In this document: positions 8,219-24,720 of the stretch, piece after piece
Layout: the number at the start of each line of letters is the position of its first letter
How positions within the stretch are numbered: position 1 is the first letter of the stretch
Position numbers and translations under genes: made by a program
Notes under the pieces: model-generated
Databases searched by the model: none
Told to the model about the DNA's origin: nothing
The model's input: the letters and a program-made list of their open reading frames with translations, nothing else
Origin: Escherichia phage Shashou
DNA: 44,155 nucleotides
Reading direction: 5' to 3' (one strand)
Sequence record: MK931440.1

Positions 8219-8560
8219 ATGGCAGACGTATTGAAACGACGCACTACGGGTGTTTCTGCGGATACAGTTGGCGCTAAGATTGACATGGAGACTATTTCTC
8301 CAGCGTCTTTCTCCCCCGCGCTCGCTGCAACCACATCCGTCACAGCGGGTGAAACTATGACACTGACCGTAACAGTAACTGGCGGTCTGAAGCCATATTC
8401 ATATCAGTGGTACAAAGATAACAACGCTATCGCCGGGGGTACCGCGGCTACCTATGCTAAAGCGTCGACCACTGCCGCCGATTCCGGCACGTATAAAGTG
8501 GTTGTTCACGATGTGTATGGTAATATTATCTCCAGCAGCACTGTAGCAACTGTGTCTTAA
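8219..8560 (+). CDS. Ig-like domain protein (putative head decoration)
   Basis: KPYSYQWYKDNNAIAGG...SGTYKVVVHDVYG Ig-like motif; paralog of C-terminus of 5022..5483. Confidence 0.55.
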   Translation: MADVLKRRTTGVSADTVGAKIDMETISPASFSPALAATTSVTAGETMTLTVTVTGGLKPYSYQWYKDNNAIAGGTAATYAKASTTAADSGTYKVVVHDVYGNIISSSTVATVS

Positions 8561-8596
8561 TACAATGGCCCTTCGGGGCCATAATAAGGAAAGGTC

Positions 8597-8776
8597 ATGG
8601 CAGATAATTACGTAATCCGCGAAAAGTACACCCACGTTGATATTGTTGATGGTCAGGTGATGCCAGTGCGCGGTGTTGTAGATGCGGATGAGCTTGTAGC
8701 AACACAACCGGATAACGAAGGAGCACACAACAACGGTGGTGGTACTAAGCGTCGTCGCCGTAAGTCTGAGGAATAA
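8597..8776 (+). CDS. small basic protein (59 aa), hypothetical
   Basis: ATG with RBS aaggaaagg; fills gap between flanking genes; C-terminal KRRRRK; below the 60-aa track cutoff. Confidence 0.45.
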   Translation: MADNYVIREKYTHVDIVDGQVMPVRGVVDADELVATQPDNEGAHNNGGGTKRRRRKSEE

Positions 8777-12436: not shown

Positions 12437-12667
12437 TCACACATCAATGTTACTCCTGTACTCCCGTAACTTCTCCAGGCTTTCGATTGCCTCAGCTAAG
12501 TCTGTCCAGGCGTCCTTGTGACCACGTAAACCCATACACAATAGCTTCTTCAATGCGTGCTGTAACGCCGGGTCGCGTATGTCGAAGGCGCGTAGCACGT
12601 CGTAAACGTCTACAGTCATAGTGCTGCCGTAGGTGTTTGTCATTGTGCGGTTGTATTTATTTGTCAC
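12437..12667 (-). CDS. hypothetical protein
   Basis: 76-aa ORF overlapping upstream gene; part of leftward operon. Confidence 0.5.
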   Translation of the reverse strand: MTNKYNRTMTNTYGSTMTVDVYDVLRAFDIRDPALQHALKKLLCMGLRGHKDAWTDLAEAIESLEKLREYRSNIDV

Positions 12668-12857
12668 TGTTAACTCTCTTAAATCTGGCTATGCCTGACT
12701 CGTTAATGTTGCCTATTTCAAAGAAGCTGCGATATTTAGGCGAATACATTCTTACATCGCCATTCTCTAGGGTGACTCCTTCGTACACCGCACCTACTTC
12801 GAACCCATTTTTCTCTGCATACGGACTTACCTCGGTGCATTCATACATGTCTTTCAT
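12657..12857 (-). CDS. hypothetical protein
   Basis: 66-aa ORF with ATGA overlap to phosphoesterase gene stop. Confidence 0.5.
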   Translation of the reverse strand: MKDMYECTEVSPYAEKNGFEVGAVYEGVTLENGDVRMYSPKYRSFFEIGNINESGIARFKRVNSDK

Positions 12858-13984
12858 CCCAGCATCTCCGGTGAAATAGTTAAACGTGCGACCTCGCCGT
12901 ATTCGGCGCTATAAGTAATTACATTTGCACTGCGGCCTGACATCCACCCGCCGCGGGAGGCGTAGGCATCTTTAGCCGCCAGGGTGCGGTGTTGTTCAAC
13001 AATCATGTTACGGCTTTCTACAATCTTTTGGTGGTGCAGGTGACCTACGTGGGCGTAGCTGTAAACACTCTCGCCGAACGCTTTGCGGAACTTGGCAATC
13101 ATAACCGGTTCGATAATGTCGAATCGCGCCTTATGCCCGTGATGAAAGAACAGCGTCGTTTTGCCGTGTTGCACCATCTTGTAAACATCCGGCGACGTGT
13201 CGACAATCACTCGGCTGTCGTTTGAGTATAAAGTCGCGAACATTTCCGCCAGCCATACGGACCCTACAGGATCGTGATTTCCTTGCACGATAAGCAAGCG
13301 AACGGTTTTATGTTTAACCAGCGCCATATCTACAACACGGCGGACCATACGAATCATGTAGCGGACAAGTTTCTGGTAGCGAGTGTCCGCGTCCAGCACA
13401 TGACGTGACTCAGGTGTAACGGCGTCCAGACTATCGAAGTGTACGAAGTCTCCTAGCAGATTAATAACCCCTGTTCCTGCATCCGGTGCTTTCTGAAACG
13501 CCGCATCGAACCATCGAGAGAACAGGTCTTCCGCAATCTTCATATCCCAGTCGTCGCCGCTCTCGTCGGCCCATGCCAGCATACCAAGATGAAAATCAGA
13601 CACGGTGTAAAGATTGAGTAGCTTGTCGTCGCGTTTGGCTCGAGTCGCTTTAACAGGAGCAACGGGCGTAATCTCTGACTTCATGCCTTCGATCACGGCT
13701 TTCATCAATTCAACCTGACGTTCGGCATCGGTGTCGGTCTTAACCCATTGCAACTTAGTGTTGCCGAACTCATCCACAAGTGACGACGTTCCTTTAATCT
13801 TGTAGCCGTCCGGCACAAGGTGGCTAACGTCGCGCCCGTGACCTACGCCTTTCTTCGCCAGCTTCGCTTTACGGATACGGATAACGCGGTCTGAGATTCC
13901 ATACTTACGTGCGATATCAATAATTTTTGTTCCGGCGTTCAATTCTTCCCGTAACTGTTCGTCGGTTATTTTCTTATGAGCCAT
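12854..13984 (-). CDS. HTH domain fused to calcineurin-like metallophosphoesterase
   Basis: N-terminal HTH-like KIIDIARKYGISDRVIRIRKAKL; ordered MPP motifs SDFHLG, GDFVHFD, GNHD, HHGH, GHLHH. Confidence 0.7.
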   Translation of the reverse strand: MAHKKITDEQLREELNAGTKIIDIARKYGISDRVIRIRKAKLAKKGVGHGRDVSHLVPDGYKIKGTSSLVDEFGNTKLQWVKTDTDAERQVELMKAVIEGMKSEITPVAPVKATRAKRDDKLLNLYTVSDFHLGMLAWADESGDDWDMKIAEDLFSRWFDAAFQKAPDAGTGVINLLGDFVHFDSLDAVTPESRHVLDADTRYQKLVRYMIRMVRRVVDMALVKHKTVRLLIVQGNHDPVGSVWLAEMFATLYSNDSRVIVDTSPDVYKMVQHGKTTLFFHHGHKARFDIIEPVMIAKFRKAFGESVYSYAHVGHLHHQKIVESRNMIVEQHRTLAAKDAYASRGGWMSGRSANVITYSAEYGEVARLTISPEMLG

Positions 13985-14023
13985 GCTTTACTTCCTCGTG
14001 TTTAGGATTTGTCCTATACTAGC

Positions 14024-14215
14024 TCACTTCTCTTTGACATTCGAGTTGCACGCCCAGATTAAAATAAATACCCACGGCAGCAGAACCCAACCGAGAAACA
14101 GATTAGCCATGAATATCGCTAATTTAGCTTTATGGTTGCGCATATGCGCCACGAGAAATGGGATAAAATAAACTAAAACGATAACGATTAAGAAGAACAT
14201 AGTAATACCTGTCAT
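14024..14215 (-). CDS. superinfection-immunity-like small membrane protein
   Basis: Start at Met47 of track ORF with AGGAG RBS; 63 aa with two hydrophobic segments flanking HMRNHKAK; resembles Imm-type small membrane proteins. Confidence 0.55.
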   Translation of the reverse strand: MTGITMFFLIVIVLVYFIPFLVAHMRNHKAKLAIFMANLFLGWVLLPWVFILIWACNSNVKEK

Positions 14216-14256
14216 GGTGTAGCTCCTGTTCGAGTTAACATTGTTGGTGTAAGTGA

Positions 14257-14285
14257 ATAGTATCCTATTATGTTGGGGTGCGCAA
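14257..14285 (-). promoter_or_regulatory. promoter TTGCGC-N17-TACTAT (minus strand) with palindrome AATAG-tatc-CTATT
   Basis: Palindrome at 14256..14269; region is reverse-complement homologous to 37799..37835; drives Imm-like/phosphoesterase operon. Confidence 0.5.
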
Positions 14286-14393
14286 GTAATGTGATAGAAT
14301 AATTTTGCGCCTAGTGTCGCACACGAAAAGCGGGTGGTTCCCGTCTGGCGCATTTACCATTAACCTGTAACCTCTTAACCAAAGGATTAAAGA

Positions 14394-14815: not shown

Positions 14816-15175
14816 TTGCTCCAGTTTGCCCGTTGGAACTTCATAACCCGCCACAAACGGCGGGAGTTTGACAGTATCGCCGACGGGCATAAAGCCGCGC
14901 TAATTGCTATGGGGGTTATGCAAGACGCGCCGGAAGCAACGCAGGACACAGGGCCGGAATGCCCCCCTGAGCTATTAACCACCTTCGAGAAGTACAGGGA
15001 AATCAAATTCACCCGCCGAGTGGACGATGATGGCATCAAGATGTACCCGCGCGAACAGTTAAGATGGTCGGATTTAGTGGCATACAGCACCGTTTCAGGC
15101 CAGAATATAGGCATGTTCGAATCTGACATCATCATGAGCTTAGACGCTATTTTCGAGGGTAGAAACGATGGCTGA
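14816..15175 (+). CDS. tail assembly chaperone extension (putative -1 frameshift product)
   Basis: Frame is -1 relative to 14394..14810 and opens at 14783, upstream of the chaperone stop; overlaps tape measure start; no classical slippery heptamer identified. Confidence 0.35.
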   Translation: MLQFARWNFITRHKRREFDSIADGHKAALIAMGVMQDAPEATQDTGPECPPELLTTFEKYREIKFTRRVDDDGIKMYPREQLRWSDLVAYSTVSGQNIGMFESDIIMSLDAIFEGRNDG

Positions 15176-17504
15176 TGTAGCTAGTTTAGTTGTAAAAGTA
15201 TCAGAGCAAGGCGCGAAAGCTACATCAGACCGTCTTGATAACCTTTCCAAGTCTGCAAAGGTAGCCGGAGCTGCGGTAGCGGGCCTCGCTTCCATCGTCG
15301 CCGCTACCGCGTACAAGGCCGCACAGGAACTGGTAGACTCCCAACGGCAACTGGACAAGATGTCCGCCAGCCTGAAAACACTAACCGGAAGCACGCAGGG
15401 TGCAAGACAGGCGTTAAGCATCCTGCAAGACTTCGCGCGCGACACCCCGTATGGTCTTGAACAGGCGGTAGAGGGATTCCGTAAACTGGTGGCTCTCGGC
15501 CTTACACCGTCAGAAGAAGCGTTGCGCTCCTATGGCAACACTGCCGCTGCTATGGGTAAAGACCTTAATCAGATGATTGAGGCCGTTGCGGACGCCAGTA
15601 CATTTGAATTTGAGCGCCTTAAAGAATTCGGCATCAAGGCCAAGCAAAACAAAGACGATGTTGAATTTACATTCCAGGGCACCACTACGGTAGTTAAGAA
15701 GAGCGCTGCCGACATCGAGCAATACCTGCTCAACATTGGTAACGTAAACTTCGCGGGGGCTATGGCGGACCAGGCCAACACACTTAACGGCGCCATCGCC
15801 AGTGCCAGCGACTCATGGTCGCAGTTAAAAATGACACTGGCTACCAGCCTTGATGTTGGTGCTCTTGCGGAGCCTATCCGGTACATCGATGATTTAATCC
15901 AGGAACTTAACGCACAGGTAGCATCCGGCGAACTCGCTGCTGAGATGCGTATGTGGGGCGACATCGCGTCAGAAGTGGGAAGCGCGATAGAGATGTCGTT
16001 CGACGCGGCATTTGGTTTCGTAGGCGACGCAATAAACGGGCTGAATGAACTTTGGGACTTTAGCAGTAAAAGTATCACCGATAGCGGTGAACAAACGGCG
16101 ACAACCATCGCGGAATCAGCCGCCGATGCGCTCGATTTCATTGCGGAAGAATTTACCGCGATGGAGCGATTCTTTGAAGATATGGTTAAAGGGGCACAGG
16201 ACGCTGGCCGGTTGGTGAAAGCTGCCTTCACACCAGGGGAATCTGTAGACGTAGCAAAAAACATTAACTTCCAGTTAGGGATGGCACTGGATACTCAGCG
16301 CGATGTTGCGGACCTGACCCGTAAAAGTTTCCGCGAACAGGTGGAGGCTCAGCAAAATATTGTCGCGCTTAAACGCGCGGCATATGACATCGACAAAGAA
16401 GCCGCTAAGGGAGAAGGTCTTAGTAAATTTAAGGTAACTGGTACTGGTGGCGGATCCGAAGATGATAGCGCAGGTGCAAAAGCCGCTAAGAAAGCCGCAG
16501 ATGCGTTCGAGCGCCAGAAGAAAGCCGCTGAGGATTTCTACTACCAGTCGATTCATCTCAATGATGACGTATTCCAGAAAATAGAAGCCAACCAGGAACA
16601 GCAGCTAACCAAGCTACAGGAGTTTTACGGCAATCAGCTTCTTAGCGACCAGCAATACGAGAACGCTAAAACTCAGATTATGCTGGAGGCGGACACTGCA
16701 CGTCAGGAAGAACTCGCCAAGCGAGAGAAAGAACGGCAGGAAAAGAACCAGAAAGGCGAGGACTTCATGGCTCAGATTATGGGTCAGAATGCCGCAGAGC
16801 TTGAGCTTTTGGAGATTCAGGAACAACAAAAACTTGACGTTGCAGACCGATATCGCGAACAGAACCTTATTAACGAGGAGCAGTACCAGGCTGCGGTTAA
16901 TGCTATAAACGACCAGTATGCTTTGAAACGTGCCAACGCTACCGGTAACGCTTTCGGAATGATGGCGGATAACATGAAGGCCTCACTAGGGGAGGCGTCT
17001 GCCGCATACAAAGCGTTTGCCATTGCGCAGGCCACCATCGCCACATACACATCCGCCATCGAGGCTTATAAATCTGCATCGGCTATCCCTATTGTTGGAT
17101 GGGTGCTCGGGCCTGTAGCAGCAGCTACAGCGGTAGCGGCAGGTCTCGCTAACATCAGCAAGATTCGTTCGGCCCGTGAGCAGGGCGGTAACTTAGCCGC
17201 AGGTCAGTTATCTACTATCGCGGAACGTAACAAGCCAGAAGTTATTATGCCTGCAGGGGCGTCACGCGTACGTACCGCGGAACAGATGCGCCAGATTATG
17301 GGCGAGAACGGCAACAAGTCAGGCGGTGACAGCGTGACAATCGTCAACAACACCACCGGACGAGTTGATTCCGCCGTTACAGAGCGTGACGACGAAGGGC
17401 GGTTACGTGTTATCATCAGTGAAACAGTATCGGCGGCGTTACAAGACAGCAACAGTGCAATCTCCAAGTCCCGCCGGGCTACACGAAACCAGCCGGGGTA
17501 TTAA
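15168..17504 (+). CDS. tail tape measure protein
   Basis: 778-aa Ala/Gln/Glu-rich helical protein with C-terminal hydrophobic and Gly-rich region; canonical position. Confidence 0.85.
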   Translation: MADVASLVVKVSEQGAKATSDRLDNLSKSAKVAGAAVAGLASIVAATAYKAAQELVDSQRQLDKMSASLKTLTGSTQGARQALSILQDFARDTPYGLEQAVEGFRKLVALGLTPSEEALRSYGNTAAAMGKDLNQMIEAVADASTFEFERLKEFGIKAKQNKDDVEFTFQGTTTVVKKSAADIEQYLLNIGNVNFAGAMADQANTLNGAIASASDSWSQLKMTLATSLDVGALAEPIRYIDDLIQELNAQVASGELAAEMRMWGDIASEVGSAIEMSFDAAFGFVGDAINGLNELWDFSSKSITDSGEQTATTIAESAADALDFIAEEFTAMERFFEDMVKGAQDAGRLVKAAFTPGESVDVAKNINFQLGMALDTQRDVADLTRKSFREQVEAQQNIVALKRAAYDIDKEAAKGEGLSKFKVTGTGGGSEDDSAGAKAAKKAADAFERQKKAAEDFYYQSIHLNDDVFQKIEANQEQQLTKLQEFYGNQLLSDQQYENAKTQIMLEADTARQEELAKREKERQEKNQKGEDFMAQIMGQNAAELELLEIQEQQKLDVADRYREQNLINEEQYQAAVNAINDQYALKRANATGNAFGMMADNMKASLGEASAAYKAFAIAQATIATYTSAIEAYKSASAIPIVGWVLGPVAAATAVAAGLANISKIRSAREQGGNLAAGQLSTIAERNKPEVIMPAGASRVRTAEQMRQIMGENGNKSGGDSVTIVNNTTGRVDSAVTERDDEGRLRVIISETVSAALQDSNSAISKSRRATRNQPGY

Positions 17505-17507
17505 CCA

Positions 17508-18908
17508 ATGAGTGATTTGAGATTCCCTATGTCCCTTCGACCAATAGTGTCGAAGGGGTACTCCCAAACGCGAGGGAGTAATATCTGGCGTACAGAAGTG
17601 CAAGGTGGCGTACCGCGACAGGGGCGTGATACATACTTTGAGCCAGTGCCGATTAGCGTTACGCTCGTCGTATCGTCGCTCGGGCGACAGGCGTTCTATA
17701 GCTTCCTGAACAACATAGACGGCGGTGCGTCTTCATTTATCATGCCGCACGATACGGGTTTAGGTCTCGAAGACCACCAGGTACTTATTACGTCGGACAT
17801 TAGCGACAGCACCGACGATGGTAAAAACTGGGTAATTACTTTCACAGCAACCGCGGAGCGGACTGCGATTCAGGAAGATACCTGCCTTACGAAGAATCTA
17901 CCGGATTTGTTCGGTTGTTATGGGGATTGCTTAGGTGGATTCCTTAAAGCATACGGAGCCGCGCAATCAACGTTTCCACGAATTTGGAGCAATGAAGGGC
18001 CTGCCGGATACCCGCCGATTAACCTTCTGGCGCCCACGCTGGATAGCCGTATTGTGTACGACGGACCGCAGGTTTACTACATCAACCGAAACGGCAATCT
18101 TGTGCAGTCCGCCGTCAATGAATGGCCTCTTACGTTTATTGATGGGGTCGCTGTTGGGCGTGTGCCGCCGGAGGTTGGTGGTCTAAACCTACTAAAAATG
18201 TCAGAGGACTTATCGGATCCCGTATGGGCAAAAACAAGGACTACTGTTACATACGGCGGAACGCAAGACCCTACCGGCGGAACGGGCGCATCCAAACTAG
18301 TCCCAACAACAACCACTGGTACTCACAACGTTTTACAATTGATAACCCCGGAAGCATCTACGGCATACACCTATTCTGTTTTTGTGAAAGCAAATGGGTA
18401 CAATAATGCTATTGTTCAGATCGGAGTATTTGCTAGTCAGGTGGCAAGTAATCCTGTTTATGTAGACCTATCTACGGGGGTGATAACATCAGCTAATGAC
18501 TATTCAAGATGCGGGATAATAGCAGTAGGTGATGGCTGGTTTAGAGTATGGGTGCGAGTTATTACTAATTCCTCCCCGACAAGGATAAACGCGTCTGTGT
18601 GGGCCTCTGACGCTGCTAACAACACGTCTTTCCCAGGTGATGGTGTTAGTGCTATATCAGTTTTTGGCGCCCAAATGGAGAAATCTAATAATTCATCGTC
18701 GTATGTTAAAACCGAAGAAAATTTAATTACACGCCCCGCGGCATCGGCAAAAGTAACCATGAATGGTGCGGCAAGCATTGACATTACCTATTCCGACGGC
18801 ACTGTGGTAAACGTTCCGTCTGTTGACGGTTACGCCACCATCCCCCAAGCGGATTCTGCGTGGGGTAGCAAATATATCACCCGTATTGATTTTAATGTGG
18901 ACGGTTAA
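17508..18908 (+). CDS. minor/distal tail protein with AT-rich C-terminal extension
   Basis: First gene after tape measure; C-terminal half (about 18250..18750) is distinctly AT-rich, suggesting an acquired domain. Confidence 0.6.
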   Translation: MSDLRFPMSLRPIVSKGYSQTRGSNIWRTEVQGGVPRQGRDTYFEPVPISVTLVVSSLGRQAFYSFLNNIDGGASSFIMPHDTGLGLEDHQVLITSDISDSTDDGKNWVITFTATAERTAIQEDTCLTKNLPDLFGCYGDCLGGFLKAYGAAQSTFPRIWSNEGPAGYPPINLLAPTLDSRIVYDGPQVYYINRNGNLVQSAVNEWPLTFIDGVAVGRVPPEVGGLNLLKMSEDLSDPVWAKTRTTVTYGGTQDPTGGTGASKLVPTTTTGTHNVLQLITPEASTAYTYSVFVKANGYNNAIVQIGVFASQVASNPVYVDLSTGVITSANDYSRCGIIAVGDGWFRVWVRVITNSSPTRINASVWASDAANNTSFPGDGVSAISVFGAQMEKSNNSSSYVKTEENLITRPAASAKVTMNGAASIDITYSDGTVVNVPSVDGYATIPQADSAWGSKYITRIDFNVDG

Positions 18909-18911
18909 CTT

Positions 18912-19427
18912 ATGAGTCAGGAATCAGTAGAAGCAGCCTATCGCCGTAAGCTGGCATCAAACCCCGACGGCGAGATTGACTACACGACGCTGGAGATAGT
19001 GCATCCGCTTCTTTCGAAGCGGTATTTACTTGTGCGCGGAACTTCTGACCTGACGGCAACGTTAGAGACCGGAGAAGTAGTTACGTTTGAGGCCACACCA
19101 ATGGAGGCTAAAGGGGCCGCCAACAATAACGACATGGACCAGCGAGCATCGTTCGCATTGCCCGATATTGGAAACCAGTTAGACGATGAGATGGATAGGA
19201 TACCGCCCGATAATACCGTGTTGCCTAAGTTTATATTCCGCCGTTTTGTTAGTACCGATTTGTCTTACCCGGCTGACGGGCCTGTTGTGTATGAGTTGCA
19301 GTCGATAAACCAGGAAAAGGGGCTATTTACCGCCTACGTTGGCGTTCCTATGTTGAACCAAAGGGCCACTGGTGAACTAATGACCCCTTCAGTAATCCCA
19401 TTGTTACGGGGCGTTTTGTCCACATGA
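18912..19427 (+). CDS. minor tail protein (gpL-like, putative)
   Basis: Synteny in tail tip cluster. Confidence 0.45.
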   Translation: MSQESVEAAYRRKLASNPDGEIDYTTLEIVHPLLSKRYLLVRGTSDLTATLETGEVVTFEATPMEAKGAANNNDMDQRASFALPDIGNQLDDEMDRIPPDNTVLPKFIFRRFVSTDLSYPADGPVVYELQSINQEKGLFTAYVGVPMLNQRATGELMTPSVIPLLRGVLST

Positions 19428-19789
19428 ATATTAATTCTTATACAGGGTTGCCGTACGACTTTCGCCGTCGTAATTGCTGGCACCATGTCCGTAACGTTCG
19501 TGCGGATGTAGGCCTCTTTACGCCTGAGTTTAACGTCGCTTCGCCAACACAGATTAACGACGCCTTCGAAGAAGGCCATAAAGATACTAAAGGCCTTGTA
19601 CGCGTAGAAACTCCGCAAAACTTCGATGCCGTGCTGATGGCAACACGGCACAGAAACCGTGTAATCTGGCACGCCGGAGTATACTATGACGGTATGGTTA
19701 GTCATTGCGAGCTGGCGAGTCGCCAGGTACGGTTAGACCGTCTGGAAGACTTGCGCGAAACTTATGCGGAGATAGAATTTTGGCGCTGA
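19424..19789 (+). CDS. tail assembly protein (gpK-like, putative)
   Basis: Synteny; RRNCWHH cysteine/histidine cluster. Confidence 0.4.
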   Translation: MNINSYTGLPYDFRRRNCWHHVRNVRADVGLFTPEFNVASPTQINDAFEEGHKDTKGLVRVETPQNFDAVLMATRHRNRVIWHAGVYYDGMVSHCELASRQVRLDRLEDLRETYAEIEFWR

Positions 19790-22335
19790 CATTACATTAC
19801 ACCCGTAACGAAGACGGTACTTTCGACCGCGAACGGCACAACGTACCGCCGATGGAATACGTCGTCGCTAACATCCCCGACGGGGTGCCTGTACGTATTT
19901 ACCGTGGCGAGATCGGCGAGGACACGGAAGTAACTGAAGATTTCGAAGCGCTGAAAGAAGACGATGTTTTCCATATTATCGAAGGCGCTGGTGGCGGTGG
20001 CGGTTTTCTGGGTAAACTCCTGGACCCTTTGGGTGTGCTTAAATTTGTTACCAAGTTGATTTCTCCGTCGCAGAAAACGCCTAAAACGAGTTTAGCGAAC
20101 CAGCAGGCTGAGTCCCCCAACAACAGCCTGACGGACCGAAGCAATAAACCCCGTCCATATGAACGGTCGTATGATATTTGCGGCAGAGTCCAGACTATCC
20201 CTAATGACCTCATGACTACCTATAAAATATTCGATGAATCTGGTCGCATTATTGAATACGGATACTACGATGCCGGTCGTGGGTATCTGGACATCAAGGC
20301 CGAAGATATTACCGACGGCGATACTAAGGTACAGGAGATTACGGGGACCTCTGTCGCGGTGTACGCGCCGTTTACATCCCCCAACAATACAAATACCCCG
20401 CAGCTTCTGGTGGGGGAACCTATCAATCAGAATCTTTATATAACTATCGCGTCTAATGAAGTAGATGGAGCCGTTCTTAAAGCCCAGAACGATATTCGGG
20501 TCAACCCAAGCGACACGGGCCGCGTGAGATATGACTCTGCTACAAAAATTGGATACCTGTATGACGACACGGGGGATTCTGGCTTCGCGGAAATATTATC
20601 TGTTGGTGACACCGCGTCGTTCAATAACTTTGACGTTCCGGACGTAACAAATACCAACGGCAACTTTCGTGTTCTTTATGTCGATAACTTCGAGCTGCGG
20701 GTCGACACCGGCGGCGCGTCTAATTGGGCTGCTTTAGGCTCAACCACCTATTCACTTTCCCAGAGAAGTGACACGTGGGTAGGCCCCGTGGATACGTATG
20801 AAAGAACATTAACCGACTGGACCACCTTAAACCGCCTGGAAGTTGAACGCGTAGTAGCCAACATCGCTGCCGCTAACGGTATGTATAAAGACAACGGCAG
20901 TAAATTGCGTACGTCGGTAACTATTGAACTCCAATACCAACTACTCGATGAAACCGGTGCCCCATACGGGAGTATCTATTCAAAACAGGCCGTTATATCT
21001 GGTCGGTCCGCCGACTACACCGGAGTTACTATTTACGCCGACTTGCCCATGAGGTCGAAAGTTAGGGTACGTGCCCGTCGTGTTACCAACCTGGACCTTG
21101 ATTTCGAGGGCACCGTGGTAGACGAGGTTTCCTATATCAACCTTTACGGTCAGGTCCGTGACACTACGCCACATTACGGCAATCGTACCACCGTACACTC
21201 GGCACGTAAGCAGACGCCGCGGGCCGCAGAGATTAAGCAACCACAGTTACGTATGGTCGCCACAGAGATGGTGTACAAATACCTCGGTAATGGTGTATTC
21301 GACACCGTAATGACACCGAATACTCAGGCCATTCAATCATTAATACGTCTCGCCCGTGACCCGGTAGTAGGTAATCTCAACCTAACAACATCCAATATGG
21401 ACAAGTTGTTAGCGACTCAAACCGAAATAGAAAACTATTTCGGTAACGTTGAGGCTGGGCAATTCTGCTACACTTTTGACGACTATAAAATGACCATGCA
21501 GGATATCATCAGCACAATAGCCGATGCTATTTTCTGCACTCCATATCGTAAAGGGCAAGACATATTACTGGATTTCGAGCGCCCGCGTATGGGGCCGGAA
21601 ATGGTATTCACACATCGAAGTAAGACAACAGCTTCGGAAAAGTGGACGCGCACATTCAACGACGCTCAGGTATACGATAGTCTTAAGTTCTCCTACATCG
21701 ACCCAGATACTAACGTAAAAGAGACCATCAGCATTCCCGCCGAGGGCGGTGTTAACACAGAAACGTATGACTCTAAAGGTATACGTAATTATCGTCAGGC
21801 GTACTGGGCGGCGTACCGTCGGTACCAGAAGAACCTGTTGAAGAAGGTGACGGTATCATTCACGGCGACAGAAGAAGGGGTTTTTGTGCTTCCAGGACGG
21901 GCAATAAGCGTAGTTAAAGGTTCACGCGTAGCACCCCAAGACGGTTATGTTATTGCGGTTAATGGCCTTACCCTGACGCTATCACAGCCTGTTACGTTTA
22001 CCCCAGGAGATGACCACTCCATCATCCTCAAGAAGCGAGACGGAGGAGTTCAAAGTGTTGCCGTTGTGCCGGGAAGCCACGACCGTGAAGTGGTTATGCT
22101 ATCTGCGCCACAGGAAGCAATCTACACGGGGAATAGTGCGCTAAAAACTGAGTTTTCATTCGGCAACGAAGCAAGGCATAATGCTCAGATGATTCTTGTT
22201 TCCACAGTTGACCCCGGAGATGACAGAACGGTCAAGATTACGGGTTACAACTATGACGACGGATTCTATAAATACGATGGCGTCGCGCCATACGGCAGCG
22301 GTTTCTCCGACGGATTCAGCAATGGTTTTAATTAA
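19780..22335 (+). CDS. tail tip / central fibre protein (gpJ-like) with gpI-like N-terminal region
   Basis: Long ORF; start uncertain (track opens at TTG 19705; TTG 19780 has GGAG RBS; first ATG 19852); N-terminal Gly-run GAGGGGGF. Confidence 0.6.
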   Translation: MALTLHYTRNEDGTFDRERHNVPPMEYVVANIPDGVPVRIYRGEIGEDTEVTEDFEALKEDDVFHIIEGAGGGGGFLGKLLDPLGVLKFVTKLISPSQKTPKTSLANQQAESPNNSLTDRSNKPRPYERSYDICGRVQTIPNDLMTTYKIFDESGRIIEYGYYDAGRGYLDIKAEDITDGDTKVQEITGTSVAVYAPFTSPNNTNTPQLLVGEPINQNLYITIASNEVDGAVLKAQNDIRVNPSDTGRVRYDSATKIGYLYDDTGDSGFAEILSVGDTASFNNFDVPDVTNTNGNFRVLYVDNFELRVDTGGASNWAALGSTTYSLSQRSDTWVGPVDTYERTLTDWTTLNRLEVERVVANIAAANGMYKDNGSKLRTSVTIELQYQLLDETGAPYGSIYSKQAVISGRSADYTGVTIYADLPMRSKVRVRARRVTNLDLDFEGTVVDEVSYINLYGQVRDTTPHYGNRTTVHSARKQTPRAAEIKQPQLRMVATEMVYKYLGNGVFDTVMTPNTQAIQSLIRLARDPVVGNLNLTTSNMDKLLATQTEIENYFGNVEAGQFCYTFDDYKMTMQDIISTIADAIFCTPYRKGQDILLDFERPRMGPEMVFTHRSKTTASEKWTRTFNDAQVYDSLKFSYIDPDTNVKETISIPAEGGVNTETYDSKGIRNYRQAYWAAYRRYQKNLLKKVTVSFTATEEGVFVLPGRAISVVKGSRVAPQDGYVIAVNGLTLTLSQPVTFTPGDDHSIILKKRDGGVQSVAVVPGSHDREVVMLSAPQEAIYTGNSALKTEFSFGNEARHNAQMILVSTVDPGDDRTVKITGYNYDDGFYKYDGVAPYGSGFSDGFSNGFN

Positions 22336-22347
22336 AGAGGACTCTAT

Positions 22348-24720
22348 ATGTCAAGCGGATGCGGTGACGTTTTAAGCCTGGCGGATTTACAAACCGCCAA
22401 GAAGCACCAGATTTTTGAAGTTGAGGTTATCACTGGTAAATCCGGCGGTGTCGCCAGTGGTGCGGATATCGATTATGCGACCAACGCGGTTACTGGTCAG
22501 ATGCAGAAGACTCTCCCCGCCGTGTTGCGAGATGCGGGGTTCTTCCCGGCATCTTTTGATTTCACTACCGGCGGGACATTATCGACTACAGACCGCAATA
22601 AGGTCGTTTATGACCCAGTAAGCATGGCCTGGTATTCATGGGGTGGTTCTTTACCAAAGGTCGTCCCCGCGGAAACTAACCCGTTACTGGACACAAATTG
22701 GAAACCGCAAACAGACCCGAATCTACGCAATGACCTTGAAAATGGCATGTACAGAACGGACGCAACCGCCGTTAAATATGTCCCTGGGGTGGTTATAGAT
22801 AGCACAACAGATAACCGGGCCGCATTGTATGCATTCCCTGGCAAAGTTTATATCCCAAAAGACGTCCAGCTACGCTGTAATTTCCTGCCAGATGATGATG
22901 TAACAAAATTTACTGGTGAAGGAAAAATTCTCACGCGCGACCCATGGGGTAACGAGCACATTTTCGACGTTTCACTGGCAACTCATGGGAGCAAATACAC
23001 TGCATTCAACGTAATAAACCAGTTCGCTCGCCGCAATACGCTATGTCGTGTTGGTATCGTTGGTGACTCAATCACAGACGGTGCATACGGAACCGAATGG
23101 GTAGCCAACCCAACGGATTCAAACGGGGACCTGTCCTCGACTAATTATGACCACAATAGCAATGGTGGCGCAGGCTCCTGGTTCCGTACCTTCACGGACT
23201 GGCTTAACCGATTTACAAAAAATGGTGCTTTCATCTTTAAAGCAGAAAACTGCGCATCTTCTGGAAAGCGACTTATTGACGGGTGGGCTAATCGTAATTT
23301 CGACCATGGCTTTTTCAAAAACACTGCATACGGGAATGTTCCACCGGATGTCTGCTTTATGTCTATGGGCGTTAACGATAACGGCCAACTGAATACGTTA
23401 GGGTTCGATCAGTACTTATTCCGTTTTGAGCAGTTTATCCGTAAAGCATGGGGCTATGGATGTGCTGTCTGCGTTGTTTCAATGAACCAGAATGGCTCAC
23501 AATGGGCGGCTCTCGAGGCATCAATCAAGAAGCATATTGAACGCCTGTTCCCCGCGGTAGAGTTCCTCGATCTCTCTCAGGCAGTAACTGAGATGTACAG
23601 AGATGTCGGTAGCTACACCTTAGAAGAAATTTGCCGTCGTCCTACCAATGGCTCTTTCGACTACACGCACTTTGCGCCCCTTGGTCACCAATATATTGGC
23701 GCTTATGCCGCGACCAAGGTTATGCCTTATCGCGTCCATAAGGCCACAAAAGGGAATAATTTCCTGCCGGTGTCGCCTAACGATATCCAACCATTCGGGT
23801 ACCCTTCCGGCAGTACATATGACGTTTCTATGGAGCGACTTAGCGGAAATTCATACCTGAATGGGCTTACCGGATGGGGCGTGGTTGAGCCCGCTACTGA
23901 AAATTTAACCATACGATATTTTGTCTGGTGTGATACTTCTGACATATCAATGGTTATTTTTGAACCATATAACCCTACTTACATTGGTTCCAGGCGCGCA
24001 AATACTGTATCAATACGCCAACAAGATACCCGTAATACAGCATATAGCTCCGGTAATATCGCGAGTAATGGCGTCTCATCGTTTACGAACAAACTCACCA
24101 CACGAACTGGAATCCTTAGAAAAGGACTGAATCAGATTGAGATTGTTTACGATGGTACGCCGTCGAAAGTATACCCTCCCGCTCTGTTATTCAGAGGAGA
24201 GCTGAACGAATCATGTTCTCAGAACGCCTCTGTATACTTGGCTGCAAATGCGATAAAGGGTGTTTACGGGCAGGTAAGAGATAAAGCAGATCTCTTATTA
24301 GCGTATGGTGCAGAAACAGCAAATGATGAAGCGCCGGATATGTACGGCGCTACTAAGTCATCAAATGTTCAAAATGTTGTCCTGTCAGCTTTGCCCGTTG
24401 GTTGTGGTGTTGTTTTTTACTACAAACCCACGTCACAAAGTGGAGTTGTCGCCAAGAGAGTGGCGACTGGCATCGAGATCTCGACGATGCTTTTTGGCGC
24501 ACTTACTGTTATCGGCACCTTGACTTGCGATGTGACCGGCGAAGTCATGCTCACAGCCGGCCTGGCACCTTCAGTACCTACAATAACAGTTAAACCCACT
24601 ACCGGCGGCACTGTTCAACAAGCTGTTACTGGTCACTCTGGCGGCAAGATAGCCCTGATTAACAAGGGGGCTTCCGGTAACACAATAACGGTTAAATCTT
24701 CATCTCAATTCGTCATTTAA
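22348..24720 (+). CDS. tailspike / receptor-binding protein with SGNH (GDSL) hydrolase domain
   Basis: SGNH blocks in order: GIVGDSITDG, MSMGVNDNG, FDYTHF; C-terminal third AT-rich; followed by bidirectional terminator. Confidence 0.7.
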   Translation: MSSGCGDVLSLADLQTAKKHQIFEVEVITGKSGGVASGADIDYATNAVTGQMQKTLPAVLRDAGFFPASFDFTTGGTLSTTDRNKVVYDPVSMAWYSWGGSLPKVVPAETNPLLDTNWKPQTDPNLRNDLENGMYRTDATAVKYVPGVVIDSTTDNRAALYAFPGKVYIPKDVQLRCNFLPDDDVTKFTGEGKILTRDPWGNEHIFDVSLATHGSKYTAFNVINQFARRNTLCRVGIVGDSITDGAYGTEWVANPTDSNGDLSSTNYDHNSNGGAGSWFRTFTDWLNRFTKNGAFIFKAENCASSGKRLIDGWANRNFDHGFFKNTAYGNVPPDVCFMSMGVNDNGQLNTLGFDQYLFRFEQFIRKAWGYGCAVCVVSMNQNGSQWAALEASIKKHIERLFPAVEFLDLSQAVTEMYRDVGSYTLEEICRRPTNGSFDYTHFAPLGHQYIGAYAATKVMPYRVHKATKGNNFLPVSPNDIQPFGYPSGSTYDVSMERLSGNSYLNGLTGWGVVEPATENLTIRYFVWCDTSDISMVIFEPYNPTYIGSRRANTVSIRQQDTRNTAYSSGNIASNGVSSFTNKLTTRTGILRKGLNQIEIVYDGTPSKVYPPALLFRGELNESCSQNASVYLAANAIKGVYGQVRDKADLLLAYGAETANDEAPDMYGATKSSNVQNVVLSALPVGCGVVFYYKPTSQSGVVAKRVATGIEISTMLFGALTVIGTLTCDVTGEVMLTAGLAPSVPTITVKPTTGGTVQQAVTGHSGGKIALINKGASGNTITVKSSSQFVI

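Follow-up and report, generated by a model that had tools for sequence, protein, structure and literature searches.

The first gene downstream of the tape measure gene in Escherichia phage Shashou encodes 466 amino acids, which raises the question of what so long a protein, with an AT-rich C-terminal half, does in the place of a distal tail protein (DTP). We analyzed a stretch of 44,155 nucleotides of this phage (sequence record MK931440.1, hereafter the window), and in particular its open reading frame (ORF) 17508..18908. An earlier note, made from the letters of the window, had taken the C-terminal half of this ORF for an acquired carbohydrate-binding or receptor-binding module. Our analysis points to a Kagunavirus DTP with an optional module of 306 residues that houses an exchangeable cassette, and we consider it reasonably probable that the module serves as an auxiliary lectin for a host surface polysaccharide, beside the tailspike. 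The parts of the protein are as follows:

17508..18908, plus strand: DTP-type ORF of 466 amino acids with an ATG start, first gene 3' of the tape measure gene
17508..17987, plus strand: DTP core, residues 1-160 (synteny; phrog_384, E 1e-36; present in short and long forms)
17919..17963, plus strand: candidate helix of low confidence, residues 138-152 (DSSP on the model, where the predicted local distance difference test score, pLDDT, is <30)
17988..18173, plus strand: frame-N, residues 161-222, conserved N-terminal part of the module (short forms diverge right after FPRIW; low column entropy)
18174..18737, plus strand: hypervariable cassette, residues 223-410, an AT-rich and Ser/Thr/Asn-rich head-spike-fibre domain with a predicted beta-sandwich like that of carbohydrate-binding modules (CBMs)
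18738..18908, plus strand: frame-C, residues 411-466 and the stop codon, conserved C-terminal strands of the module (identity across relatives; GC content at third codon positions, GC3, of 0.50)

First, the length of the protein is indeed unusual for a DTP, as the earlier note had remarked. Only 164-166 amino acids make up 36 of the 61 complete homologues in IMG/VR loci, and almost all of the top 120 database matches to residues 1-164 are 164 amino acids long. The short homologues are 67-98% identical over residues 1-160. Those that are 94-98% identical over this region finish with "…TFPRIW-DPMQ-stop", and this stop codon overlaps the ATG that starts the DUF1833 gene. In the long form "…TFPRIW-" leads into SNEGPAGYPPINLL…, the beginning of 306 further residues. 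The alignment with shorter homologues that had been proposed as a check places the start of the extension after W160 (nucleotide 17988), so that it spans nucleotides 17988..18905, and full-length conservation was not seen. Since near-identical short forms stop just past W160, the last 306 residues are an optional add-on. In short-form genomes no copy of the module was found within 8 kb on either side of the gene. Most of the 164-166 amino acid forms have the hub gene directly next, and a few have an insertion of 100-190 nucleotides first.

Second, the extension is not uniform. An alignment of 26 homologues showed two sharp conservation boundaries, at about residue 222 and at about residue 410. 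Column entropy is about 0.3 bit at residues 1-222, which are highly conserved, and 1.3-2.2 bits in the cassette, where cassette types are 30-40% identical to each other; residues 411-466 are highly conserved. Within the cassette, N227, H273, S290, K294, W344, and G377-D378-G379 are invariant. Frame-N is 86-97% identical even where the N-domain of the phage is 64% identical or unrelated, and for frame-C the identity is 71-93% within Kagunavirus and 79-81% with Sf11-type phages. A mechanism of the diversity-generating retroelement type was set aside as the source of this variability, because the variants are whole-domain replacements at 30-40% identity and not targeted substitutions; no search for a reverse transcriptase was made.

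The base composition follows the same boundaries. The raw GC content of 18250-18750 is 0.455, against a window mean of 0.501, which by itself is unremarkable (z = -1.3, 11th percentile of 500-nucleotide windows). At the codon level, where the proposed sliding-window check found non-uniform composition, the cassette (residues 223-410) has a GC3 of 0.362; across all long ORFs, none of the 292 sliding windows of 188 codons goes lower (mean 0.548, sd 0.067). Its Ser+Thr+Asn fraction of 0.303, against a mean of 0.18, is in the top 1% of windows. The earlier description of an AT-rich and Ser/Thr/Asn-rich C-terminal half therefore holds for codons and residues, although the dip in raw GC is modest. 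The AT-rich stretch is also real as a part of the extension, but it forms a nested cassette within a conserved frame and neither fills the extension nor reaches the C-terminus: over the final 56 residues (18738..18905) the composition is normal again.

Low GC3 is common to nearly all cassette types (mean 0.40, against about 0.5-0.6 in the N-domain) and belongs to the cassette pool in general; it does not mark a single recent event. Elsewhere in the genome, a comparably low GC3 (0.37-0.43) occurs only in the C-terminal part of the tailspike gene (23728..24720, residues ~461-790). Since only the first ~290 nucleotides of the tailspike gene are conserved in Kagunavirus, the two composition outliers of the genome would correspond to its two exchangeable host-recognition segments.

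Domain and structure prediction, also among the checks suggested earlier, returned a family and a confident all-beta model. Residues 227-411 match the NCBIfam model NF048003 (GTA_spike_fiber, "phage head spike fiber domain") with 109.4 bits against a cut-off of 36, near full-length (profile positions 8-182 of 182). Residues 222-431 align to residues 82-291 of the 6tb9 chain, which is Rcc01080 of the Rhodobacter capsulatus gene transfer agent (RcGTA; phmmer E 2e-17). By these matches the cassette belongs to the phage/GTA head-spike-fibre domain family. A first AlphaFold2 model, which took in the whole protein and 26 of its near homologues, reached a mean pLDDT of 57.8 and was poor except in the cassette; it was used for a preliminary Foldseek search only and replaced by a model of residues 161-466 on 48 diverse homologues, which is all-beta with a mean pLDDT of 95.3 and a predicted template modelling score (pTM) of 0.91. 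The predicted fold of the cassette is a lectin-like beta-sandwich of the CBM4/16/22/61 kind. The best matches in the viral structure library are the K1ind2 homologue, with a TM of 0.91, and numerous tail or "concanavalin A-like" proteins that are uncharacterised. Homology (NF048003, Rcc01080) and predicted fold thus support the carbohydrate- or receptor-binding module that had been expected here.

In RcGTA, the head-spike fibre is monomeric and flexible and serves in attachment to the capsule, and the fluorescently tagged fibre bound capsulated cells far better than capsule-less mutants (PMC7296036, PMC10218006). The present cassette matches as a full-length member of the same domain family as this protein (Rcc01080/GhsB; NF048003). 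The setting differs, however: the RcGTA domain sits on capsid pentons via an N-terminal Leu-Gly repeat, whereas here it lies at the tail tip, within a conserved frame and fused to a DTP.

The head-spike-fibre domain is very widespread, with 15,255 matching clusters at 50% identity; often there are 3-13 copies in tandem, and the proteins are then 800-6,800 residues long. Among them are giant metagenomic proteins with 3-13 matched stretches, such as P0121 (2788 amino acids), P0128 (3693), and P0244 (6808), and a Pfam scan of three multi-copy proteins found no family match. A further domain, CBM_4_9 or Laminin_G_3, occurs in another part of the protein in some distant homologues only. Searching the literature for Kagunavirus in combination with the domain name found nothing relevant.

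Third, module and cassette move. When the window is compared with phage SHAK7693, the cassette stands out with a nucleotide identity of 98-99%, against 58-71% for the N-domain and 65-77% for the hub gene. The corresponding synonymous divergence (dS) falls from 4.4 in the N-domain to 0.46-0.56 in the frame and to 0.03 in the cassette. Within a cassette type the ratio of nonsynonymous to synonymous substitution (dN/dS) is 0.23-0.41, which indicates purifying selection, less strict than on the N-domain (0.04-0.08). These values point firmly to horizontal exchange of the cassette between otherwise diverged genomes. The term "acquired" in the earlier note is strongly supported, both by this contrast (98-99% against 58-77% in the flanks; dS 0.03 against 4.4) and by short homologues that are up to 98% identical.

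The N-domain and the frame are likewise uncoupled. An N-domain that is 64% identical occurs with a frame that is 88-97% identical, a 98% identical N-domain occurs without the module, and the unrelated Sf11-type N-domain occurs with a frame that is 79-86% identical. The cassette type of the window is also found on an Sf11-type DTP, in phage EcoIv28_Lewi, with 74% amino acid identity across the module, and the Sf11 cassette type occurs in Kagunavirus proteins. Rahnella prophages have a complete frame-plus-cassette unit within lambda-type gpL. The presence of the module on two unrelated N-domains and in gpL calls for independent acquisitions, whatever happened in Kagunavirus. That it fits inside gpL also implies neighbouring ends for the module; this would agree with frame segments that together make up one subdomain, as they may do.

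Some database entries that touch on this exchange deserve mention. In two minor tail proteins L of the lambda family from Rahnella prophages (P0157 and P0400, 489-552 amino acids) the module lies between a gpL-like start and a Phage_tail_L match at 353-549, and this plug-in unit sits one gene downstream of the DTP. Two entries of 291 amino acids (P0122 and P0163) were considered as stand-alone modules and dropped, since the context of P0163 shows an internal-start gene call in a full-length Sf11-type DTP ORF. P0163 (L070:6001-6876, Rahnella bonaserana GCA_039672815.1) is an NCBI call of 291 amino acids from an internal Met, named "phage head spike fiber domain-containing protein"; the open frame reaches back a further ~165 codons, to MAIPYPDW…, and covers a complete Sf11-type DTP with its module. 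The record of SHAK7693 (L067, OR594180.1, vB_EcoM_SHAK7693) has the taxonomy line Autographiviridae; Studiervirinae; Kayfunavirus, which, like the "M" in the name, does not suit a Kagunavirus-like siphophage tail module and a 45-kb genome.

Fourth, cassette and tailspike assort independently of each other. Six Kagunavirus-type phages (Sciku, GZMU_E2010, Schulenburg, Snoke, SHAK7693, and hz69) have the cassette of the window at 89-99% nucleotide identity, and part of it occurs in EcoIv28_Lewi at 77%. The receptor-binding part of the tailspike is common to only three of the six (Sciku, Schulenburg, and Snoke); in GZMU_E2010 the cassette has 98% nucleotide identity with that of the window and the tailspike is not shared. 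Across the 20 loci in which both genes are complete, nine of 12 same-cassette pairs have tailspike receptor-binding bodies that are <=20% identical, and eight of 11 same-tailspike pairs have different cassettes. L001 and GZMU_E2010, for instance, have 100% identical tailspikes next to cassettes of 20% identity. The idea that cassette type tracks tailspike type was rejected (Spearman rho -0.08). Short-form phages retain a homologous N-terminal tailspike anchor (56-85% identical), and the module is therefore not needed for mounting the tailspike.

The closest solved relative of the protein is the DTP of Shigella phage Sf11, gp17 (PDB 9OCC chain C). It is 457 amino acids long, against 466 here, and its gene likewise stands between the tape measure gene and those of hub 1, hub 2, and the tailspike. 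The virion has six copies of it, and the modelled part, residues 3-165, includes a helix at ~129-152 that forms a bundle with helices from the tailspike N-terminus (Subramanian, Dover & Parent 2025, PMC12724387). The rest was described as a "large extra appendage… of currently unknown function" and was too flexible to model (PMC12724387). It is this unmodelled appendage that is homologous to the present module: the similarity covers residues 165-464 of the present protein (E 9e-83; 52% identity by tblastn), with a frame that is about 79-86% identical and a cassette of another type. In contrast, the N-terminal DTP and adaptor domains of Sf11 gp17 are unrelated in sequence to those of Kagunavirus (phmmer; hhalign probability 0.6%). 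The N-terminus of the tailspike is also unrelated to that of Sf11 gp13, and the hub 1 protein had no match to any solved structure among PDB sequences, 9OCC included. A shared module next to an unrelated N-domain and tailspike anchor, with no hub 1 match, indicates that the module was shared laterally and not through common descent of the whole gene.

The N-terminal domain itself is read mainly from its surroundings. Its gene stands directly 3' of the tape measure gene and 5' of the DUF1833 hub 1 gene and the TipJ-like hub gene, as expected for a DTP. In sequence and profile searches of residues 1-164 against PDB chains no meaningful match was found (best E 0.3). The model of this domain has a pLDDT of 25-60, with a strand-helix-strand pattern that is compatible with Dit and unreliable. 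The Dit fold is unconfirmed because these searches were empty and hhalign gave 0.6% against the Sf11-type N-domain. The DTP role of the Kagunavirus protein is thus suggested by gene order and the shared module and not by a demonstrated fold. The candidate helix at residues 138-152 may lie in the position of the tailspike-adaptor helix of Sf11 gp17.

Taken together, a CBM-like fold, a position at the tail tip, hypervariability, lateral exchange, and independence from the tailspike favor a role of the module as an auxiliary lectin. Residues 1-160 would form a ring below the tail tube and provide the attachment site of the tailspikes, as suggested by synteny and the Sf11 structure. The all-beta module of 306 residues, fused after W160, has residues 161-222 and 411-466 as a frame around the cassette (residues 223-410), and six copies would project from the tail tip if the ring is hexameric as in Sf11. 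The module could then act as a multivalent lectin of low affinity that binds host surface polysaccharide reversibly, an adhesin beside the enzymatic tailspike and independent of it, possibly for a polysaccharide other than the tailspike substrate. Its specificity would be renewed by recombinational swapping of cassettes within a pool common to several phage genera.

Several points weigh against this role. Glycan binding by the Kagunavirus and Sf11 modules is something we infer, and the authors of the Sf11 structure left the function open (PMC12724387). A Pfam scan of the 466 amino acid protein found no domain, neither a CBM family nor a galectin domain. No similarity of the N-domain to a solved DTP was detected, and the model of this domain is poor, so that the DTP assignment leans on synteny. 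Finally, the cassette domain may be dispensable, as suggested by an in-frame deletion of ~105 residues in one relative. This relative (IMGVR_UViG_3300045988_013393, L002:8001-9092) encodes a DTP of 363 amino acids that has lost the N-terminal half of the cassette and kept an intact frame; its tape measure, hub, and J-like proteins are 98-100% identical to those of the window, and it may be a natural mutant without a working cassette.

The same deletion variant, together with the optional nature of the module in the lineage, is what one would expect if the module were a non-essential decoration that binds non-host glycans, such as those of mucus or biofilm matrix, and enriches the phage in a habitat instead of aiding adsorption. 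A lectin-like fold agrees with this, as does the fact that the domain is also found in giant proteins with many repeats and, as the RcGTA head spike, on capsids. We regard such a decoration as rather unlikely, however, since the module sits at the tail tip beside the tailspikes and not on the capsid, and since whole-cassette replacement at 30-40% identity and recent transfers resemble the behavior of host-range determinants; targets of the mucin type would not obviously demand such turnover, and the RcGTA homologue binds the capsule of the recipient cell itself (PMC10218006).

An alternative role without any ligand, as a wedge-like structural brace or docking platform that holds the six tailspike trimers or bridges the mismatch between C6 and C3 symmetry, is unlikely too. 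Phages with the 164 amino acid form lack the module and keep homologous tailspike anchors and hub proteins. In Sf11 the adaptor helix lies within residues 3-165, outside the module, and the module is too flexible to model (PMC12724387). Moreover, a structural element would hardly be the most variable segment of the tail module or assort independently of the tailspike.

Very improbable, finally, is the reading in which the composition dip is a by-product of amino acid content or chance and the long C-terminus is ancestral and was lost in the short forms, with nothing acquired: raw GC is just 1.3 sd under the mean, the direction of gain or loss at the W160 junction is unreadable from sequences alone, and a GC3 that is low in all cassette types dates no single event, but GC3, largely independent of amino acid content, is the lowest of the genome in the cassette, the 100-fold contrast in dS and identities of 98-99% against 58-77% show recent lateral exchange of the cassette, the same module occurs on two unrelated N-domains and in gpL, and the identities of N-domain and frame already suggest incongruent trees.

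An auxiliary lectin on a DTP would have a counterpart in the evolved Dit (evoDit) proteins of Lactococcus skunaviruses, Lactobacillus phage J-1, and Streptococcus thermophilus phages. In both systems short and long versions of the DTP occur within one group, and the long version has a CBM-like beta-sandwich (here by prediction) that is absent from the short form of sister phages. In skunaviruses, the CBM-bearing evoDit restores or improves adsorption to hosts that produce exopolysaccharide (PMC10688798). The two differ in architecture, since the CBM of evoDit is inserted in a C-terminal galectin-like domain, whereas the present module is a C-terminal fusion past W160 with a frame of its own. 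They also differ in their hosts, which are Gram-positive for evoDit, in contrast to a Gram-negative host and enzymatic tailspikes here. A further match was to gp46, the baseplate wedge 2 protein of Pa193, one of the PB1-like Pseudomonas myophages (9B45), and the E217 baseplate entry 8ENV matches as well. Pa193 gp46 differs in being part of the triplex wedge of a contractile-tail baseplate, a docking subunit for the tail fibre for which no glycan-binding role is reported (PMC11456595).

Kagunaviruses are common E. coli phages that are finding use as small chassis in synthetic biology and therapy. At present the tailspike alone is taken to set their host range (PMC11990801). Parts of the picture are already known: GenBank lists the gene as a hypothetical protein, the 2025 work on Sf11 gave a structural description of this protein type, NCBIfam offers a curated model of the domain, and DTPs with CBMs are well known from phages of Gram-positive bacteria. 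Our analysis adds the placement of the Sf11-type appendage in the head-spike-fibre/CBM-like family, with a testable role, and a frame-and-cassette organization with exact swap boundaries (W160 for the module; about residues 223 and 410 for the cassette). It further shows the module to be optional, portable, and independent of the tailspike in its recombination, and carries the "evolved Dit" idea over from phages with Gram-positive hosts to siphophages of enterobacteria. If the cassette does bind a second glycan, this would explain host-range differences among phages with identical tailspikes and provide a second engineering handle.

More tentatively, and with some doubt on our part, the auxiliary-lectin role could be part of a two-key recognition in Kagunavirus and Sf11-type phages, in which the tailspike reads one glycan (e.g., O-antigen) and the DTP cassette a second one (e.g., K-antigen, enterobacterial common antigen, or modified core). 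The two specificities would reassort freely, mirroring the O:K combinations of E. coli, and the frame-plus-cassette unit would be a general plug-in lectin holder at the DTP/hub junction, at the C-terminus of the DTP or inside gpL. It would then offer a ready scaffold for host-range engineering that leaves the tailspike untouched.

The position of the gene agrees with what the earlier note had said of it, namely that it is the first gene after the tape measure: the tape measure gene occupies 15168..17504, and the ORF begins 4 nucleotides past its stop codon. The neighbouring tail genes are:

15168..17504, plus strand: tape measure protein, 778 amino acids (phrog_1538, E 8e-197; Pfam TMP_3)
18912..19427, plus strand: baseplate hub 1-like minor tail protein, DUF1833, 171 amino acids (PF08875, E 2e-17; phrog_396, E 3.5e-50)
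19424..19789, plus strand: small minor tail protein, 121 amino acids (phrog_329, E 8e-11)
19705..22335, plus strand: TipJ/gpJ-like hub protein, listed ORF of 876 amino acids, true start probably near 19780 (NF040662, E 9e-114; PDB 9occ_E, Sf11 gp14, E 2e-22; lambda gpJ)
22348..24720, plus strand: G7C-gp63-like esterase tailspike, 790 amino acids (Pfam Gp63_3rd_G7C, G7C_GBD, Tail_spike_N, and Lipase_GDSL_2)

The tailspike consists of a conserved N-terminal anchor and a variable esterase-type C-terminal part. In Sf11-type prophages the hub 1 position is taken by a 156 amino acid protein with a weak DUF1833 match, and the gene syntenic to that of the 121 amino acid minor tail protein has a weak NlpC/P60 match. 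At the DNA level, ORF 17508..18908 is 99.6% identical to a "hypothetical protein" gene of Escherichia phage Sciku and 88-94% identical to genes of Snoke, Schulenburg, GZMU_E2010, and hz69, and partial matches extend throughout the genus Kagunavirus (Guernseyvirinae).

Both junctions of the DTP gene are hot spots for insertions. On the hub 1 side, short-form phages have small additional ORFs, as in L021 and L027 (~8495-8605) and in L035 and L038 (~8495-8680). Between the tape measure and DTP genes, SHAK7693 has an HNH endonuclease gene (L067:6143-6793) and a Rahnella prophage has a lipoprotein-like ORF of 128 amino acids (L070:5037-5423). Further upstream in the window, a block of opposite-strand ORFs (12437..14353; e.g., 12854..13984, 376 amino acids) lies between the tail tube and tail assembly chaperone genes; in relatives these minus-strand ORFs are annotated as a DNA repair exonuclease/metallophosphatase, a superinfection immunity protein, and small hypothetical proteins.

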